Origin: a virus
Taxonomy: Duplodnaviria; Caudoviricetes
Strand: one strand, 5' to 3'
IMG/VR virus record: IMGVR_UViG_3300020236_000094
Span: 1 to 36,810 of that record
Length of the DNA: 36,810 bases
The notes below the pieces were generated by a model. That model worked only from the letters and a program-made list of their open reading frames with translations, searched no databases and was not told where the DNA came from. Shown here piece after piece: positions 4,186 through 35,482 of this stretch. Made by a program: the position numbers and the translations under genes. How positions within the stretch are numbered: position 1 is the stretch's first letter; every line of letters starts with the position of its first letter.

Positions 4186-4340
4186 TTTGCGTAGAAGGAA
4201 AGATAATCATCGGAGAATACGTCATTGAGGAAAAGGATGACGATACTGTCTGGATTTCCCAGCTGGACGGTGAAGGTGGAGCCTTTGATGCGAAGGCACT
4301 TGAGTCAGTTATTGAACGGTTTTACTTGGATCATTTCTGA
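4182..4340 (+). CDS. Small acidic hypothetical protein (52 aa)
   Basis: GGAGG RBS; ATGA overlap; MICVEGKIIIGEYVIEEKDDDTVWISQLDGEGGAF... Confidence 0.7.
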   Translation: MICVEGKIIIGEYVIEEKDDDTVWISQLDGEGGAFDAKALESVIERFYLDHF

Positions 4341-4645
4341 TGAGCCAGCCCCGGCGCGCAAAGAAGATTGATAAATCCCAGATAGGGATAGTGGGGACGC
4401 TACGAGGTTATCCAGGGATCTCTGTAAAGCTGGACGTAGACGATATTTTGGTAGGCTATAACATGCAGAATTATCTTTTCGAGATAAAGAACCCTGATGC
4501 AATAAGCAAAAAAACGGGGTTATTACTCGAATCAAAAAAGACGAAATCGCAGAAGCGGCTGGACAGGACATGGACCGGACATCGAGGCTATGCAACCTGC
4601 GTTAAAGATATTTTGCAGGCTATTGGGTATCGGCGCAAAACTTGA
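4340..4645 (+). CDS. PD-(D/E)xK nuclease (VRR-NUC / Holliday-junction-resolvase-like)
   Basis: RAKKIDxSQxxIVxxLR...DILVGY...LFEIK...SQ pattern. Confidence 0.75.
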   Translation: MSQPRRAKKIDKSQIGIVGTLRGYPGISVKLDVDDILVGYNMQNYLFEIKNPDAISKKTGLLLESKKTKSQKRLDRTWTGHRGYATCVKDILQAIGYRRKT

Positions 4646-4691
4646 GGTAATTGTTATGAAAAACTTAAACAAAACCGCGTTGCTTTTGGCT

Positions 4692-4999
4692 GGTCAGTTT
4701 GACCGCCTTGTTATATTTTTTATTAATTTAGGTGAGCGATATGGAAGAAAGAACCGGAACAATTAAAAGCTATATTGAAGCGCCAAGGTGGGCTGCATTT
4801 CCTGAGTTTCTAAGGAACAGGTGTTTTGTTCTTGGGCTTGATTTAGAGCTTGATATAGATAAAGGATGGATTAGAGAAACGGTGAGATTTAAAATTGAAG
4901 GGAAAGAGTCGGTATTAAGACAATTTATTAGAGAGCTTGATGCAAGCATGAAAGATTACAACGAAATATAACAGTGATATATACAGAAAGCCGTGTATC
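4692..4999 (-). mobile_element. Integron-like unit 1: attI-like site (4999-4964), cassette with inverted gene, truncated attC left arm (4716-4692)
   Basis: Cores GTTATATTT(4710-4718)/AAATATAAC(4964-4972) are perfectly complementary; minus strand reads ATATAAC AAGGC GGTCAAAC TGACC. Confidence 0.65.
4741..4971 (+). CDS. Cassette-borne hypothetical protein
   Basis: AGGTGAG RBS; stop TAA lies inside the ATATAAC core. Confidence 0.75.
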   Translation: MEERTGTIKSYIEAPRWAAFPEFLRNRCFVLGLDLELDIDKGWIRETVRFKIEGKESVLRQFIRELDASMKDYNEI

Positions 5000-29096: not shown

Positions 29097-29624
29097 ATGC
29101 ACATTACAGACGAATTACTTACCTCAAAAAACGCCTGCGCTAATGGAAAGCATTGGTTTAACAAGGGTTTCCCGGCAGGAATTGATATTCAAATCGCCAT
29201 TGATAGGGCTGTTGAGGAGGATTATCCTGATTATGCAGATTGGCTGATAACAGCATTTGGCCCCATTAACCGCACCCTTAAGGTTGATGGCGATTTAATC
29301 GTTGAGAAAAGCCTTTATTTTTGTGGATCAATCGCAGTTACGGGGCGAATACAGGTACAAGGTCAACTACGGGCCGGCTCGGGCATTAAGGCCGGCTCGG
29401 GCATTGAGGCCGGCTTGGGCATTGAGGCCGGCTCGGGCATTGAGGCCGGCTCGGGCATTGAGGCCGGCTGGGGCATTGAGGCCGGCTCGGATTTCGGGAT
29501 TTATGTCGGTCTGAGACTCCGAATGTCCTTGCGCGCTAAGCGTGCCACAGTAACCGCAAAAGAGGAGCCAAAAAACATTGTCTGTGGCACGTACAAACAG
29601 CCTGATAACGTAGACGTAACATGA
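29097..29624 (+). CDS. Beta-helix repeat protein with (AGxGIE)n
   Basis: ITDELLxxKNACxxGxxWF N-terminus plus hexapeptide repeats; GGAG RBS. Confidence 0.85.
   Translation: MHITDELLTSKNACANGKHWFNKGFPAGIDIQIAIDRAVEEDYPDYADWLITAFGPINRTLKVDGDLIVEKSLYFCGSIAVTGRIQVQGQLRAGSGIKAGSGIEAGLGIEAGSGIEAGSGIEAGWGIEAGSDFGIYVGLRLRMSLRAKRATVTAKEEPKNIVCGTYKQPDNVDVT
29373..29490. repeat. 18-bp tandem repeat, about 6.5 copies, coding
   Basis: GCCGGCT(C/T/G)GGGCATT(G/A)AG. Confidence 0.95.
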
Positions 29625-30696: not shown

Positions 30697-31028
30697 ACTG
30701 TGCAGCTGCGCGTGGACTGTCTGGCGGGCATATCGGGGCATTCGGACGAAAACCTGATGCTGGATAGCACGCAATAATACAAAAACTCTTCACTTCGCTC
30801 AATATTTTTACTCCCGCCAGACCAGCAGCCATAACTGGACTCACTGAATAGTGCGTCACAGGTATGACAAAAATACGCCGTCGCTGCATCACTGGCCTTT
30901 ATTCCACGGCCCTTTCCGAGAGTATGCTGACGAAATCCTGCGTAATGGCAGGCCCTGGTCTCGCCCTCTCTCCCGCAACGGACACAGGGGGCGTTACGTG
31001 CAGCCTGGAGCCGCTTTTTATCCCTCAC
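30693..31028 (-). CDS. DUF1364/YbcO-like HNH-type nuclease-domain protein
   Basis: LQAARNAPCVRCG...ACH...GKGRGIKASD...CHTCD; follows ninB. Confidence 0.8.
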   Translation of the reverse strand: MRDKKRLQAARNAPCVRCGREGETRACHYAGFRQHTLGKGRGIKASDAATAYFCHTCDALFSESSYGCWSGGSKNIERSEEFLYYCVLSSIRFSSECPDMPARQSTRSCTV

Positions 31029-31419
31029 GGCGGAACCTGTCTGCATCGGGGAGGGCTACTCCGCTCTCAGCTGTGAGTTGATAAAACCGCTCAATCGCCT
31101 GAGAATATCCATATCGCTCAAGATCCTCTGTACTCCCATCAGGTACTGTTAGCTCAACGCCAAATCGCGTCACCTGCTTGCTACCGAATAAGTGAATTTT
31201 GAATAAATCCTTTACCTGCCCAGTAGTTAATCCTATTTCATCGGCATAAATATCGAACAGCTTATGCAGCCATCCGCGCTGGCTATTGGTTTTCTTCCGC
31301 TGGTGCTGCTTGATCTCCACATCCCAGTCCCGGCCCTCGTCCAGCTCGTTTATCGTCTTGACGAGGTTGCAGCGGTACATCGCGAAATTATCGCCCGTCC
31401 AGAGAGTGAAGTTAATCAT
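31018..31419 (-). CDS. ninB: NinB/Orf family recombination protein
   Basis: VEIK..RKKTNSQRGWLH...KDLFK...STEDL...GVALP; GGAGG RBS. Confidence 0.8.
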   Translation of the reverse strand: MINFTLWTGDNFAMYRCNLVKTINELDEGRDWDVEIKQHQRKKTNSQRGWLHKLFDIYADEIGLTTGQVKDLFKIHLFGSKQVTRFGVELTVPDGSTEDLERYGYSQAIERFYQLTAESGVALPDADRFRREG

Positions 31420-31460
31420 TCAATCCTCCGAAGATACGCGGCTTTCTGTATATATCACTG

Positions 31461-31967
31461 TTATAACCCTTTTCGCTCAACAGTAACTATCGTATCGTTC
31501 TTGTTGCCACCGTGAGGGACTAGCAGTATCTCAATAATTTCAAATCCTCTATTTTTACCTATGCCCCCACTGCGCCAACCGCAGCAAATAGCCAAACCAC
31601 CAGGTTTAACCACCCTGGCAATTTCATTTTTTACATTTGCCCAATACTGCATGTTGGTTACGCTGCCAGTAAGCCTGCTTTCCCCATAATTTTTGTAGCA
31701 TTCACTAGCCTGCCTCATACTAAATGGTGGGTCATATAGTGCTACATCGGCACTATTACTATCTAGCATTTCCAAAAATTCTACAGCGTCCATATTGTAA
31801 TCTGTACCATATCCAGGGTTGAGATCGTTTGTTATTGTCCCGTACTTGCTGGCATTAGCAAACGGATCAATAACAATCCCAGTCACATACTTGTCTAATA
31901 AATGGCGGATCGGCTTTATAGTAAACGTCAATTTATTAGACATAGCCCAACAACGGTTTATAACCAT
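31461..31967 (-). CDS. Small DNA adenine methyltransferase (cassette-borne)
   Basis: IDPFA (motif I) and LYDPPFS (motif IV); likely start MVINRCWAMSN at 31967. Confidence 0.85.
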   Translation of the reverse strand: MVINRCWAMSNKLTFTIKPIRHLLDKYVTGIVIDPFANASKYGTITNDLNPGYGTDYNMDAVEFLEMLDSNSADVALYDPPFSMRQASECYKNYGESRLTGSVTNMQYWANVKNEIARVVKPGGLAICCGWRSGGIGKNRGFEIIEILLVPHGGNKNDTIVTVERKGL

Positions 31968-32050
31968 ACGGTCAAACGGATTCGCTTCGCTCACGCGCTT
32001 CCCTCCATCAGATACACGGCTTTCTGGATATATCTCTGTTATATTTCTAA

Positions 32051-32272
32051 TCAGCGTAGGGTTTTGGTAGCCAAAATGATGCACACGGGCATTTTCCCAT
32101 AATCATCTTGCATGGCACACATTGCCGCTACTGGGTCAGTTCCGCTACCAACCATTTCTACGATTTTCGCGTTATGGTCTTTCCAATATGTGGTTGAGAA
32201 AAACACGATAAAAACGATAGCTGTAAAGATAATTGCATTTATTGAAATCCAGAATTTACTTTCATCATTCAT
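32051..32272 (-). CDS. Cassette-borne single-TM protein
   Basis: GAGG RBS 8 nt before ATG 32272; TM helix then G.DPVAAMCA. Confidence 0.75.
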   Translation of the reverse strand: MNDESKFWISINAIIFTAIVFIVFFSTTYWKDHNAKIVEMVGSGTDPVAAMCAMQDDYGKMPVCIILATKTLR

Positions 32273-32296
32273 TTTCATATCCTCAGTTAAATCAAA

Positions 32297-32356
32297 ATAT
32301 AACAAGGCAAATTCACTCGGACGCAAAACCCGCGCCGGTGATTTGCGACGTTATAA
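32297..32356 (+). other. attC: attC (59-base element)
   Basis: ATATAAC AAGGC AAATTCACTCGGACGC AAAACCC GCGCCGGTGATTT GCGAC GTTATAA. Confidence 0.8.
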
Positions 32357-32358
32357 CG

Positions 32359-32565
32359 CTAACCCCATACCAGATCAGACGGGCTGGTGGCTTGCACAGT
32401 TCTACTTTTGCAATACAAAACCTTTACCACGTCGTCATTAAAATCAATAATCACGCCGGGTTCACAATCATCATGCCCAGCGTTTCCATTCGCATAGCCA
32501 GGGACATACGTCACATTGTCAAGATAATGCTGCTCTTTATTCAGTTCTATGTTTTCTATCTTCAT
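32359..32565 (-). CDS. Small SH3-like hypothetical protein
   Basis: AGGAG RBS; VTYVPGYANG...CEPGVI...ATSPSDLVWG. Confidence 0.75.
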   Translation of the reverse strand: MKIENIELNKEQHYLDNVTYVPGYANGNAGHDDCEPGVIIDFNDDVVKVLYCKSRTVQATSPSDLVWG

Positions 32566-32581
32566 AATAATCTCCTAAGGT

Positions 32582-32953
32582 TCATTGGGGGTCTGACATC
32601 GGCATCCAGTACAGGGGCAGACCGAACCTGCCACTTTCATCTGTTCGCCAAGCAGTGACGGTTTGCTGCGGCTCCCCTATCTGTCCGGCCCTGTATTTGC
32701 AGCTGGCTACCGCTCCGCCGTAAAACACCATCAGTAAGTGCTGCGATTTGTCTGGTGACAGCTCTTTTGTCGATACCCAAGTAGCCTCTAACTTAGCCTC
32801 CAGCTCGTAAATACGTATGTCCCTATGTGCAAGTTCTGCCGCAATGTCAGACTTGCTGTAAAGCTCTTCAGATGTCATATGAGACATATGGTCGTAGTAA
32901 ATTTGTCCTTGCTCCTCGGTATCCCTCTCTGCATATTTCTGTGCTTCAGTCAT
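32582..32953 (-). CDS. Protein with C-terminal DUF551-like domain
   Basis: GGAG RBS before ATG 32953; WVSTKELSP...YWMPM..P. Confidence 0.7.
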   Translation of the reverse strand: MTEAQKYAERDTEEQGQIYYDHMSHMTSEELYSKSDIAAELAHRDIRIYELEAKLEATWVSTKELSPDKSQHLLMVFYGGAVASCKYRAGQIGEPQQTVTAWRTDESGRFGLPLYWMPMSDPQ

Positions 32954-33022
32954 ATTATTCTCCAATAGCGGCAGCACCATAGTTTTATTCAGATTCACTT
33001 CCGCTACTTTGCATAAACAGTA

Positions 33023-33241
33023 TCAAACCAACTTTGTCCGAAAGAATTTATTGTTTATTTCCTGTGTTATGATTTCTGCGTCGATAAGTGTTTTCACCTT
33101 ACTGATCGCTATAGATTCTATCTTGTCATAAGCTCCATGGTTCCGACTGGCGGGACTCGTAGACCATACCCAATCAGCTGAGTATCCATGGGGGTCCTTC
33201 TTGGTGTAGATCCTGGCTAATCTATAAGTAATGACGGACAT
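33023..33241 (-). CDS. Hypothetical protein
   Basis: AGGAG upstream; operon context. Confidence 0.55.
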   Translation of the reverse strand: MSVITYRLARIYTKKDPHGYSADWVWSTSPASRNHGAYDKIESIAISKVKTLIDAEIITQEINNKFFRTKLV

Positions 33242-33531
33242 GCTTCTATACTCTCCTGCTTAACATTTGACAGGGCCGATAACCTCTCCGAGATAATAAA
33301 TAGGAATATTTCCAGCAGAAATTCCAATTCCTTGGCAAGCCCTGGGATACCTCCCCAGCAATCCTTTGCCTTGGCCTCAAAATAAACCAATATTCGGAAT
33401 AGGTGATAATGCTCAATAGGGGCGTCTGTGTGCAGATATTTCCATGCATCACATAATGGACCAACTAAGCACTGCTCTTCTTCAATAGCCGATACAGGAG
33501 AACCGAGCCGGTATGGGCTGAGTTTATTCAT
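33217..33531 (-). CDS. Hypothetical protein
   Basis: ORF track; operon context. Confidence 0.5.
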   Translation of the reverse strand: MNKLSPYRLGSPVSAIEEEQCLVGPLCDAWKYLHTDAPIEHYHLFRILVYFEAKAKDCWGGIPGLAKELEFLLEIFLFIISERLSALSNVKQESIEACPSLLID

Positions 33532-33540
33532 TTCAGTTCT

Positions 33541-33701
33541 TCATTCAAAAACTGAGTCTTCCCGGTACGCCCATGCCTGCACATTCATCTGTGCAAGCTG
33601 GTATCTTATAGCTTCAATACCATCCTCTATCGCTTTTGATGAGGACATTGCATATAAGAGCTGCAACTGACGTATGCTTCTTCAAGTTCTTTTCTGTTCA
33701 T
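33541..33701 (-). pseudogene. Frameshifted copy of the MNRKELEE leader gene
   Basis: MNRKELEEA, then a 1-nt shortfall before the IRQLQLLYAMSSSKAIEDG... frame. Confidence 0.5.
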
Positions 33702-34063
33702 GTGTATTTACCCCTAGTCTGTTTCGCCTCCTGGATGACAATGGTGGCATCTAGGGGTGTACAGAGTGTCCCCTTCAGTGATTCAACCTGTCGTATGTAT
33801 AGGTCACGATCTTCTATAGCAGATGTAACCGCGCATTCTAGCGCCCGAACTTCTTTTGCTATATCGTGTAAGGTCGAGTGTGTCCATGCGTTCGAACTCT
33901 CTGCCTCGTCTGCTATTTCGTCTATACGATCAGAAATAGGCATGGGAAGCTCTTCCATCTGCGCCAGCCAGGTTTTGGCAGCTTCTATAAGCGTTTTAAG
34001 CTGCGCCCCCCGAGCATTTTCCTCCCAGTACTTAATCGCTTCTTCAAGTTGTTTTCTGTTCAT
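33698..34063 (-). CDS. Hypothetical protein (MNRKQLEEAIK...)
   Basis: AGGAG RBS before ATG 34063. Confidence 0.7.
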   Translation of the reverse strand: MNRKQLEEAIKYWEENARGAQLKTLIEAAKTWLAQMEELPMPISDRIDEIADEAESSNAWTHSTLHDIAKEVRALECAVTSAIEDRDLYIRQVESLKGTLCTPLDATIVIQEAKQTRGKYT

Positions 34064-34343
34064 CTTTCTCTCCTGTTCTTTCTGCGGCCTTTTTAAGTGT
34101 GGTGCGCCATGCTCTATCAAAATCTTCATAGGCTCCTGCTGGAGAGTCTCCAAAACCACAAACACCAGTCTGAATATCGTCTCCATATAGTGCACACCAT
34201 GACGTTCCGTCAATAGTTAGAGTCGGCTTAAACAGAAAGGACGGCCGGTCAAACTCAGAGGTTGCCTCCATAATTCTATTTGCACAATCATCTGCCGCCA
34301 TACAAATAGCTTGCATTGCTATTACTGAATGATCATATTCCAT
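34044..34343 (-). CDS. Conserved phage hypothetical protein (DGxxWCALYGxDIQxGVxGFGDSP)
   Basis: GGAGG RBS; recognisable motif. Confidence 0.8.
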   Translation of the reverse strand: MEYDHSVIAMQAICMAADDCANRIMEATSEFDRPSFLFKPTLTIDGTSWCALYGDDIQTGVCGFGDSPAGAYEDFDRAWRTTLKKAAERTGEKDEQKTT

Positions 34344-34800
34344 TCTTCTCTTCCTCCACAGGGCAGTAGGCTATAACTTGATCCCAGCAAGTAATTGCCC
34401 TCGATTTAGGAAAAGTCATCATGTTTCCGCTCTTAAGCAGGGCGTGTATTTGCATAGATCCCACTCCCTTTGGCCAGCCAGTACCTAAATAGGGGATGAA
34501 CTGGAAGTTAAGGGGGATGCGGCGCCAGTATTTCCACGCGTAAATTGCTCCATCATGCGGGTATTGATAGCAATTAAGGCCGTCCTTTGTCATGCTTCCT
34601 GCACTTCTTCTGGGTTGCCAACCGTTGTGGGCATCATCCCGAACTTCAACGAGCATCCCTTCGGCGGGAACCCAAACTTCAGGCTCTTCCTTCATCTGTG
34701 CAAGCTGGTATCTTATAGCTTCAATACCATCCTCTATCGCTTTTGATGAGGACATTGCATATAAGAGCTGCAACTGACGTATGACGTATCGATTCTTCAA
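34333..34800 (-). CDS. Hypothetical protein; 5' end disrupted by a 7-nt duplication (ancestral start 34816)
   Basis: ATACGTC ATACGTC; TTG start overlaps the upstream stop. Confidence 0.55.
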   Translation of the reverse strand: MKNRYVIRQLQLLYAMSSSKAIEDGIEAIRYQLAQMKEEPEVWVPAEGMLVEVRDDAHNGWQPRRSAGSMTKDGLNCYQYPHDGAIYAWKYWRRIPLNFQFIPYLGTGWPKGVGSMQIHALLKSGNMMTFPKSRAITCWDQVIAYCPVEEEKNGI

Positions 34801-35186
34801 GTTCTTTTCTGTTCATCTTTCTCTCCTGTTTTAGACTCTTTGTGCAACTCTGCATACTCCTTCACTAGCTCCCGCATGTCCTCGTCAGGTTGTACGCAAT
34901 AACCTAGCTCCTGAAACGAAAAATACAGGTCTCCGCATGGTTCGCACATATAATAAGGGGCGAGGGCTACTGCTTCCCAATCATCACCATGAATCTTTTC
35001 TTCAATGTCATCCTTCGGCCCTCGTGTTCTTTCAAAGGAAATGCACACAGCCCCAAGATCGACAAGCTCGCCACAACTGGAACAACGCTTACGGCGTGCC
35101 CCTGATAGCATTGTGTAGTCGTCCGGGCTGTGCCAATACCACTCACAATCATCATCATAATCGGGACATGAGCACACAAGTGGCAT
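34797..35186 (-). CDS. Cys-rich Zn-binding hypothetical protein
   Basis: CSC, RCSSCG and MCEPCG; TAATG overlap. Confidence 0.75.
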   Translation of the reverse strand: MPLVCSCPDYDDDCEWYWHSPDDYTMLSGARRKRCSSCGELVDLGAVCISFERTRGPKDDIEEKIHGDDWEAVALAPYYMCEPCGDLYFSFQELGYCVQPDEDMRELVKEYAELHKESKTGEKDEQKRT

Positions 35187-35482
35187 TATAAGAGTTCCCC
35201 CTGTTCCTCCCCAATAACGCTATCTAGGCAATCATTAACCTCGTCCAGTCCGTCACGCCATTCACCAGTGCCATGCACGTCCCCTGATGCAATCATTCGC
35301 TGCGGCATTGATTGCATGCGTTTAACCATCCTTAGTGTATCAAGTACAGACTGCATGCTTTCAGTTTCGTGGTCGGCTTTCTGCTGGGTCATGCTGTCGT
35401 TCTCTACCCTGCGAGGATATACATAGACTCGCATCTTGATCTCTCTTTCGACAGTGGCGATTTGTTCAGTAAGGTTTTTCAT
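35186..35482 (-). CDS. Phage hypothetical protein (QIxxVEREIxMRxxVYPR)
   Basis: GAGG RBS; ATGA overlap. Confidence 0.75.
   Translation of the reverse strand: MKNLTEQIATVEREIKMRVYVYPRRVENDSMTQQKADHETESMQSVLDTLRMVKRMQSMPQRMIASGDVHGTGEWRDGLDEVNDCLDSVIGEEQGELL

Follow-up and report, generated by a model that had tools for sequence, protein, structure and literature searches.

Probable minimal attI sites, dispersed and reversed, each with one inverted gene cassette in an uncultured phage

Introduction

Integron cassettes are known from phages as well as from bacteria. The main text of a recent study reports 17 CALINs in phages, with methyltransferases among their cargo, and recombination of phage attC sites with IntI1 and attI1 (Qi et al. 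2023, PMC9892861). The same text describes an attI that heads a CALIN in a cryptic Shewanella prophage having its own intI, and mentions divergent attC directions in one phage (PMC9892861). In general, an attI site is recognised by its cognate integrase (PMC2095811; PMC8946536, in the parts that concern recognition), and most marine attI sites are, according to the pertinent section of one report, simple sites without direct repeats (PMC3146285).

The locus described here combines elements of these systems in a different arrangement. A phage contig, whose whole length of 36,810 nucleotides is called the window below, contains three copies of a 33-nt sequence that is very probably a trimmed bacterial attI, and each copy is followed by one gene in the opposite orientation (Table 1).

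Results

The window encodes, among the 48 proteins that were scanned, virion and lysis proteins, namely terminase, head-tail adaptor, major capsid protein, endolysin and spanins. The contig is present in a single run (X1), a hydrothermal-vent metagenome that is possibly the source sample. A related phage is present in the same run with roughly half the depth; its gene content differs over positions 32795-35329, where 1686 bases are replaced by 850 and 373 bases are skipped. Among the small early genes, a perfect 93-nt direct repeat (33584-33676 and 34691-34783), with 43-nt repeats nearby, bears the marks of module shuffling. Two in-frame tandem repeats were also observed: an 18-nt unit in about seven overlapping copies at 29354-29515, within a 175-aa gene, and a 60-nt unit repeated three times at 1-180, within a gene cut by the left contig end.

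Table 1. Features of the phage contig; positions are those of the window.
Feature	Position	Strand	Remarks
Phage contig (G000)	36,810 bases, linear		58% complete by CheckV
attI copy A	31433-31465	+	probable minimal attI; crossover between 31460 (G) and 31461; between methyltransferase cassette and ninB
attI copy B	32011-32043	+	crossover between 32038 (G) and 32039; core with two changes versus copies A and C
attI copy C	4967-4999	-	crossover between 4972 (G) and 4971; end of rightward early operon, facing lysis genes
Cassette A gene, DNA methyltransferase	31461-31994	-	PHROG 11619, E 9e-46; 177 aa from GTG 31994, or from ATG 31967
Cassette A attC left arm	31958-31994	+	R'' 31958-31964 (complementary core), 5-nt spacer, L'' 31970-31977, stem start; right arm missing, copy B next
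Cassette B gene	32051-32278	-	75-aa protein, hydrophobic N-terminal half; no Pfam, PHROG or NCBIfam match
Complete attC (cassette B)	32297-32356	top strand on +	complementary core 32297-32303; crossover between 32350 and 32351; cassette B spans 32039-32350
Cassette C gene	4741-4971	+	76 aa, predicted ACT/NIL-like fold; 4 matches
Cassette C attC left arm and decayed right part	4635-4716	-	R'' 4716-4710 (complementary core); L'' as in cassette A
Leader frame, 36 codons	4656-4766	+	starts inside attC remnant, reads through, overlaps cassette C gene start; putatively translated
ninB-like recombination mediator	31018-31419	-	PHROG 72, E 4e-10; next operon gene after copy A
Operon gene upstream of cassette B	32359-32565	-	stop codon just outside complete attC
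Gene upstream of site C	4340-4645	+	101 aa, no family match; 3' end overlaps far end of attC remnant

A first-pass annotation, made from the sequence alone, had described three copies of the 33-mer, each ending in GTT and each followed by one gene on the opposite strand, and the coordinates and pattern counts bear this out. A 24-nt pattern has 3 exact matches in the window against 0.00 expected from 100 shuffles, and copies A and C differ from copy B by 3 and 2 mismatches, the next best site in the window by 13. The inverted third copy is real, but it had been placed at 4964-4999 and its limits are corrected here to 4967-4999. Copies B and C have 37 nt in common (4963-4999 on the side of copy C), and likeness ends abruptly at the site edges. 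A distance of 578 bp separates copies A and B, which are direct repeats; copy C is inverted relative to both, with 26 kb between. When aligned with 35 host sites, the 33-mers show the architecture of a simple site, with a GTT-containing R box, a 5-bp spacer and a degenerate L box; as in an attI, no single-strand hairpin is formed (folding z +0.79, +0.52 and -0.69).

The identity of the 33-mer was approached from bacterial sites and from bacterial integrases. In a GTDB-derived genome collection, a 22-nt pattern had two matches, one in a Gammaproteobacteria genome (G001), which has a site identical to copy A over 22 nt, and one in a Lachnospiraceae sequence of which 300 bases were viewed (L033). 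The core occurs four times in G001. One copy lies 139 bp upstream of a divergent intI (466 aa; TIGR02249, 441 bits; L034:1489-2889), and the other three, which share about 200 bp of upstream DNA, have no intI match near them in the stretches that were fetched and head ordinary cassettes where the contig continues. Several intI-distant attI copies that head normal arrays of their own are seen in G001 (L044-L047), G048 (L126-L128) and G045 (L117, L118). When up to 2 mismatches are allowed, 46 of 151 relatives of G001 together contain 72 matches; a reversed control pattern gives 18. Examination of 67 of the 72 places intI directly upstream in six genomes (G001, G132, G017, G021, G062 and G048), at a distance of 113-233 bp from the core, the gene being partial or cut by the contig or the fetched stretch in three of these six cases. 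Behind many other host matches there is a cassette whose complementary core is perfect, and some of the two-mismatch matches are plainly due to chance.

For the test from the integrase side, 36 long-form intI genes were fetched, and 30 were kept after removal of 6 with less than 160 nt upstream. Judged by eye, the best match ends in ACTG/TT or AATG/TT (the slash marks the crossover) at 134-231 nt from 23 of the 30 genes, 15 of them at 134-142 nt, and does not do so for the other 7; in 11 of the 23 cases, also by eye, a perfect 7-nt complementary core and then an attC arm follow. Under a strict limit of 4 mismatches, 6 of the 30 long-form genes pass, against 0 of 30 in both controls. Short-form intI genes (27, of which 3 were dropped) pass this limit in 0 of 24 cases and show the ending in 2 of 24. 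A weight matrix was made from 35 host sites selected through intI adjacency, a first-cassette match or inspection by eye, which score 28.0-44.3; copies A and C reach 35.2 and 34.5, and copy B, at 23.9, falls under the lowest host site yet lies far over the background, represented by the next site in the window (5.6).

Because the host core adjoins intI, and in view of the integrase-side test and the matrix scores, the 33-mer is very probably the trimmed attI of a Gammaproteobacteria clade with an integron integrase of about 470 aa. The attI reading of the first-pass annotation is thereby supported from both sides: the core itself in six genomes and a related site at 23 of 30 long-form genes. 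The sites are trimmed in that the upstream inverted partner of many host attI sites is absent from the phage copies. Accessory upstream sites are direct repeats in attI1 and variable in other classes, and not every attI has them (PMC3146285). The 5' end that the three phage copies have in common has no exact match in the examined host sites. The integrases of the clade carry an additional N-terminal stretch of about 140 aa, which looks like a further SAM-like DNA-binding domain (Atlas feature score 0.96, PF13495 clusters), and the upstream inverted partner of many attI sites of the clade might be bound by this extra domain.

In all three cassettes, the 7-nt core at the cassette start is complementary to the R'' box at the far end, as the first-pass annotation had noticed. 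The attC of cassette B contains the R'', L'', L' and R' boxes in this order and extrahelical bases. Its bottom strand folds at -15 kcal/mol (z -4.45), with 0 of 200 shuffles as good, and it is matched at 30 bits (E 1.5e-5) by a covariance model that was built here from 36 host attC sites picked by structural scan of host loci and is not that of IntegronFinder; with this model, the complete attC proposed at first holds. Of the far ends, which had been read as either a left arm or a complete attC, cassette A has a left arm and cassette B a complete site; to this must be added, as a correction, an attC left arm in cassette C. The arm of cassette A has no match to the covariance model and no attC fold together with copy B (z +0.12), and the stretch 4716-4635 of cassette C matches at 19.5 bits (E 0.007) although its bottom strand lacks an attC fold; this remnant is possibly a whole attC with a shortened spacer that has decayed. 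Two of the three attC sites, those of cassettes A and C, are thus broken, without the complete imperfect palindrome. The intact attC is in cassette B alone, and copy B is also the most diverged of the attI copies. Directly outside the complete attC, a second TAAC (32351-32364) overlaps the stop of the upstream gene and is possibly the scar of an earlier cassette.

A CALIN has two or more attC sites within a few kb and no integrase. In the window, one complete attC and one half-site lie within 400 bp, with no integrase, which under strict CALIN rules counts as a single attC. The phage arrangement is like an integron turned round and split up; it is neither a complete integron nor strictly a CALIN.

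The polarity of the cassettes is reversed. All three phage cassette genes are inverted, whereas the first cassettes of the hosts, where an attC was detected, are normally oriented in 11 of 11 cases; none of the three phage genes lies on the attC top strand, where it would be read from Pc across attI. The phage attI copies face against the operons, so that phage transcription would run through attC, gene and attI in this order. From the orientation of genes and sites, the cassettes do appear to be placed for reading by the phage operons, as had been claimed. Genes A and C have their TAA stop inside the core at the crossover. For the methyltransferase, both candidate starts lie inside the attC arm, GTG 31994 behind a ribosome-binding site and ATG 31967 at the position that matches the N-terminus of the homologs, and translation of genes A and C is likely to start inside the attC arms.

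Relatives of the cargo were sought in several collections. A crude keyword filter for attC-derived N-termini flagged 3 of 108 methyltransferase homologs, one of them the query. Inspected by eye, some close homologs seem to have such N-termini. No attC was found at the ends of four methyltransferase loci (50-84% identity). The search with gene B gave 43 matches including itself. For the protein of cassette C, the predicted fold comes from structural look-alikes and is a lead, and viral contigs gave just 2 weak partial matches to its gene; a homolog of the adjoining 101-aa gene in phage G152 (40% identity) ends about four codons earlier and has other genes next to it. No ninB relatives were found in viral contigs.

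Twenty-four gene-B loci were viewed of the 25 fetched (L010 was left out as a copy of L009). One of them, L016, is an unrelated contig in which an inverted cassette, with other attC sites around it, contains a gene B homolog with 56% identity, and it is the best outside evidence, read from sequence, that such cassettes may be mobile. This 2.3-kb metagenome contig holds an array of inverted genes (L016:118-1760) with long attC sites that contain ribosome-binding sites and start codons. The remaining 23 loci show no attC. Because just L016 among the 24 loci has attC, gene B and the like are probably ordinary phage genes that are sometimes in cassette form.

The tallies for the host clade take in one unpublished genome (G114), on which none of the positive findings depends. 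An IntI over the cut-off is encoded in 76 of 151 genomes. Of 81 genomes searched for the left arm of the complete attC, 16 have it, with 0 in the control; the two other left-arm types occur in 1 and 0 of 151, and gene B in 0 of 151. The cargo has the appearance of phage genes that were turned into cassettes, and not of host cassettes. In the host clade, genome G029, which encodes IntI and has an attI of the same type, contains a 5.5-kb phage contig (G029:C121, L202), which could be misbinned, with five virion genes 29-50% identical to those of the phage and a gene in the scaffold position; the capsid is 50% identical, and four virion genes are syntenic.

Neither a tyrosine recombinase nor an integron integrase is encoded in the 36.8-kb contig (no match to PF00589 or TIGR02249), which is linear and incomplete. 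No intI stands beside any of the three attI copies or elsewhere on the contig, as it would in a complete integron. Among complete relatives, the nearest one found is G152 (42 kb; capsid 59% and terminase 49% identical). It has a tyrosine integrase, which reaches 28 bits on TIGR02249, where the cut-off is 265, and is not an IntI. Because this relative has such an enzyme, the missing part of the phage genome may hold an ordinary integrase, and the label "integrase-less" given by the first-pass annotation is valid for the linear, 58%-complete contig only.

No sign of exchange at the sites was found in the collections that were searched. The contigs of run X1, which drop rare variants, contain no empty site, no cassette circle and no joint skipping a cassette. 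In viral contigs, exact 24- and 21-nt site patterns had 0 and 0 matches, and a looser pattern had 27, none with attC or intI context. Over 577,623 bases of other loci, no attI-like site scores above 17; five related phage records contain no attC; and the stretches fetched around 45 terminase relatives (up to 51% identity) show neither an attI-like site above 17 nor an attC. Against cultured phages and plasmids, BLAST of the site gave weak matches alone (E 0.6 or worse), and BLAST of the 1-kb region gave methyltransferase genes in 15 of 17 records, together with two weak matches. Rfam gave no relevant family and 2 weak histone stem-loop matches, and no RNA datasets containing the phage were found. 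Of the claim that the locus is a system by which the phage acquires genes, the parts that stand are the probable attI sites, the complete attC and the inverted cassettes; an empty allele, a circle and a related phage bearing different cargo were looked for without success, and no close relative for comparison came to light.

Discussion

Three things are observed, namely the identity of the sites with the attI of the hosts, the anatomy of the cassettes and their reversed polarity, and the mechanism that in our opinion explains them best, with a probability of roughly 0.7, is that the attI copies serve as landing pads that have been filled by an integron integrase of the host type acting in trans. 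The phage would infect, or would have infected, the Gammaproteobacteria clade that bears these integrons, and the IntI of this clade, probably supplied by the host, would have inserted each cassette by attC x attI recombination at G/TT. Transcription from the phage would then read the flipped gene, located on the bottom strand of the attC. Later, two of the attC sites would have lost their right arms and kept the left ones for their start signals, which may be why it is the left arms that survive; those two genes would thereby have become fixed. Of the three cassettes, B alone would remain a normal substrate, while the attI copies would stay open to new cassettes. Besides the attI match and the polarity, the left arm of the complete attC in host-clade genomes, the many IntI genes of the clade, the related virion genes binned in G029 and the inverted gene B cassette of L016 speak for this mechanism. 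Against it stand the two broken attC sites, the score of copy B (in front of the intact cassette) below every host site, the rarity or absence of the other left-arm types and of gene B in the host clade, the missing upstream inverted partner, and the failure to find an empty site, circle or switched cassette in the contigs of run X1 or another phage with this attI in the loci searched. That the phage borrows IntI in trans was already proposed in the first-pass annotation, and the lack of a tyrosine recombinase in 36.8 kb agrees with the proposal; it is a step that we infer, however, on a contig that is linear and incomplete.

A wider scheme is more tentative, and we hold it as a possibility well short of even odds: a cassette economy of reversed polarity that runs on the host IntI, with minimal attI pads at several operon positions, a pool of flipped phage-gene cassettes that host arrays would leave unexpressed, and start signals in the attC arms, in which a methyltransferase circle might arise by attI x attI recombination without attC and a 26-kb flip might also occur. 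Because attI1 x attI1 recombination works in both orientations in the experiments reported by the pertinent part of one source (PMC4792948), excision of the methyltransferase unit through copies A and B, or inversion of 26 kb through A or B and C, would be possible.

The attI-cassette units could instead be relics that were made once, in the host or in an ancestor, and are now frozen, having spread by homologous recombination over the 33-mer with no current activity of IntI. The breakage of two of the three attC sites, the adjoining ninB-like gene and the lack of switching in the contigs of run X1 are in keeping with this, and a shared 5' end without an exact match in the examined host sites fits duplication within the phage lineage. 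We nevertheless regard a relic origin as unlikely, since the host core is preserved without change over 19-22 nt in copies A and C, the likeness stops sharply at the edges, and the presence of a different gene with its own matching core at each copy suggests three separate insertions at G/TT.

Somewhat less probable still is an integron-type recombinase of the phage's own, encoded in the missing part of the genome and independent of any host. The linear, 58%-complete state of the contig leaves room for such a gene; against it stand the window without a PF00589 or TIGR02249 match, the tyrosine integrase of G152 at 28 bits versus a cut-off of 265, and the match of the phage attI to a bacterial chromosomal clade.

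We give very little weight to the 33-mer as an operator for a transcription factor (for example LexA-like or a phage repressor) that ends in GTT by chance: the three copies do stand in early operons, but they lie at gene ends and not at promoters, promoter-like sites nearby are not enriched (6 versus 3.6 and 0 versus 1.4 expected), and the host site is found exactly where the first cassette begins, so that the gene-end position and the host cassette boundary largely refute a simple transcription-factor site. One half of the 33-mer resembles what we take to be a LexA half-site, and the second inverted half of what we take to be a LexA box is absent. Equally improbable is that the 33-mer is the right arm of a long type of attC, with which it shares the box spacing found in an attI simple site and for which copy B is suitably placed directly after an attC left arm, because this arm and copy B do not pair and the host copies adjoin intI or follow a shared upstream block instead of lying between cassettes; the intI-adjacent position largely refutes this reading.

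If landing pads filled by a host-type IntI are indeed what the phage carries, integron integrases would serve phages, and not only bacteria, for gene swapping, and phages could gain methyltransferases and other accessory genes at exact positions in this way. For a phage that has not been cultured, the attI match also offers a host clue of a new kind. Since the matching integrase, its attI and an intact attC have all been identified, the case can be tested directly.

Comparison with known systems

A literature search, made mostly without subscription papers, found no account of a phage in which minimal attI copies are dispersed, set in reverse and paired with inverted cassettes. In the G001 clade, the sedentary chromosomal integrons are like the phage locus in having the same attI core, the same attC type as cassette B and several intI-distant attI sites per genome; they differ in that their attI sites have upstream DNA and head arrays in normal orientation, whereas the phage retains 28 bp to the left of the crossover and has reversed polarity. 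SALINs, or off-site insertions, likewise consist of single cassettes away from the integrase, which loss of attC is suggested to fix, but in the available text of that preprint they are inserted at a short genomic motif (Loot et al., bioRxiv 10.1101/2022.09.11.507474), and the target in the phage is a long, repeated attI that matches the host.

The Shewanella prophage M16-3 shares with the present locus a host-type attI that heads an integrase-less cassette cluster, and two attI copies; it is, however, a cryptic prophage with its own complete integron including intI, and its attI is not described in the main text as a reversed pad in phage operons (PMC9892861). Phage CALINs are similar in that attC sites and cassettes, with methyltransferase cargo, are present in a phage without a nearby intI. 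They differ from the window, in which three dispersed attI copies have one cassette each, reversed relative to the operon, with genes on the bottom strand and starts in the attC arm, none of which is described in the main text of the phage study (PMC9892861). Arrays of attC sites in phages, and a prophage attI that heads one, are therefore already published, and what is new here, relative to that text, is the dispersed and reversed minimal attI copies.
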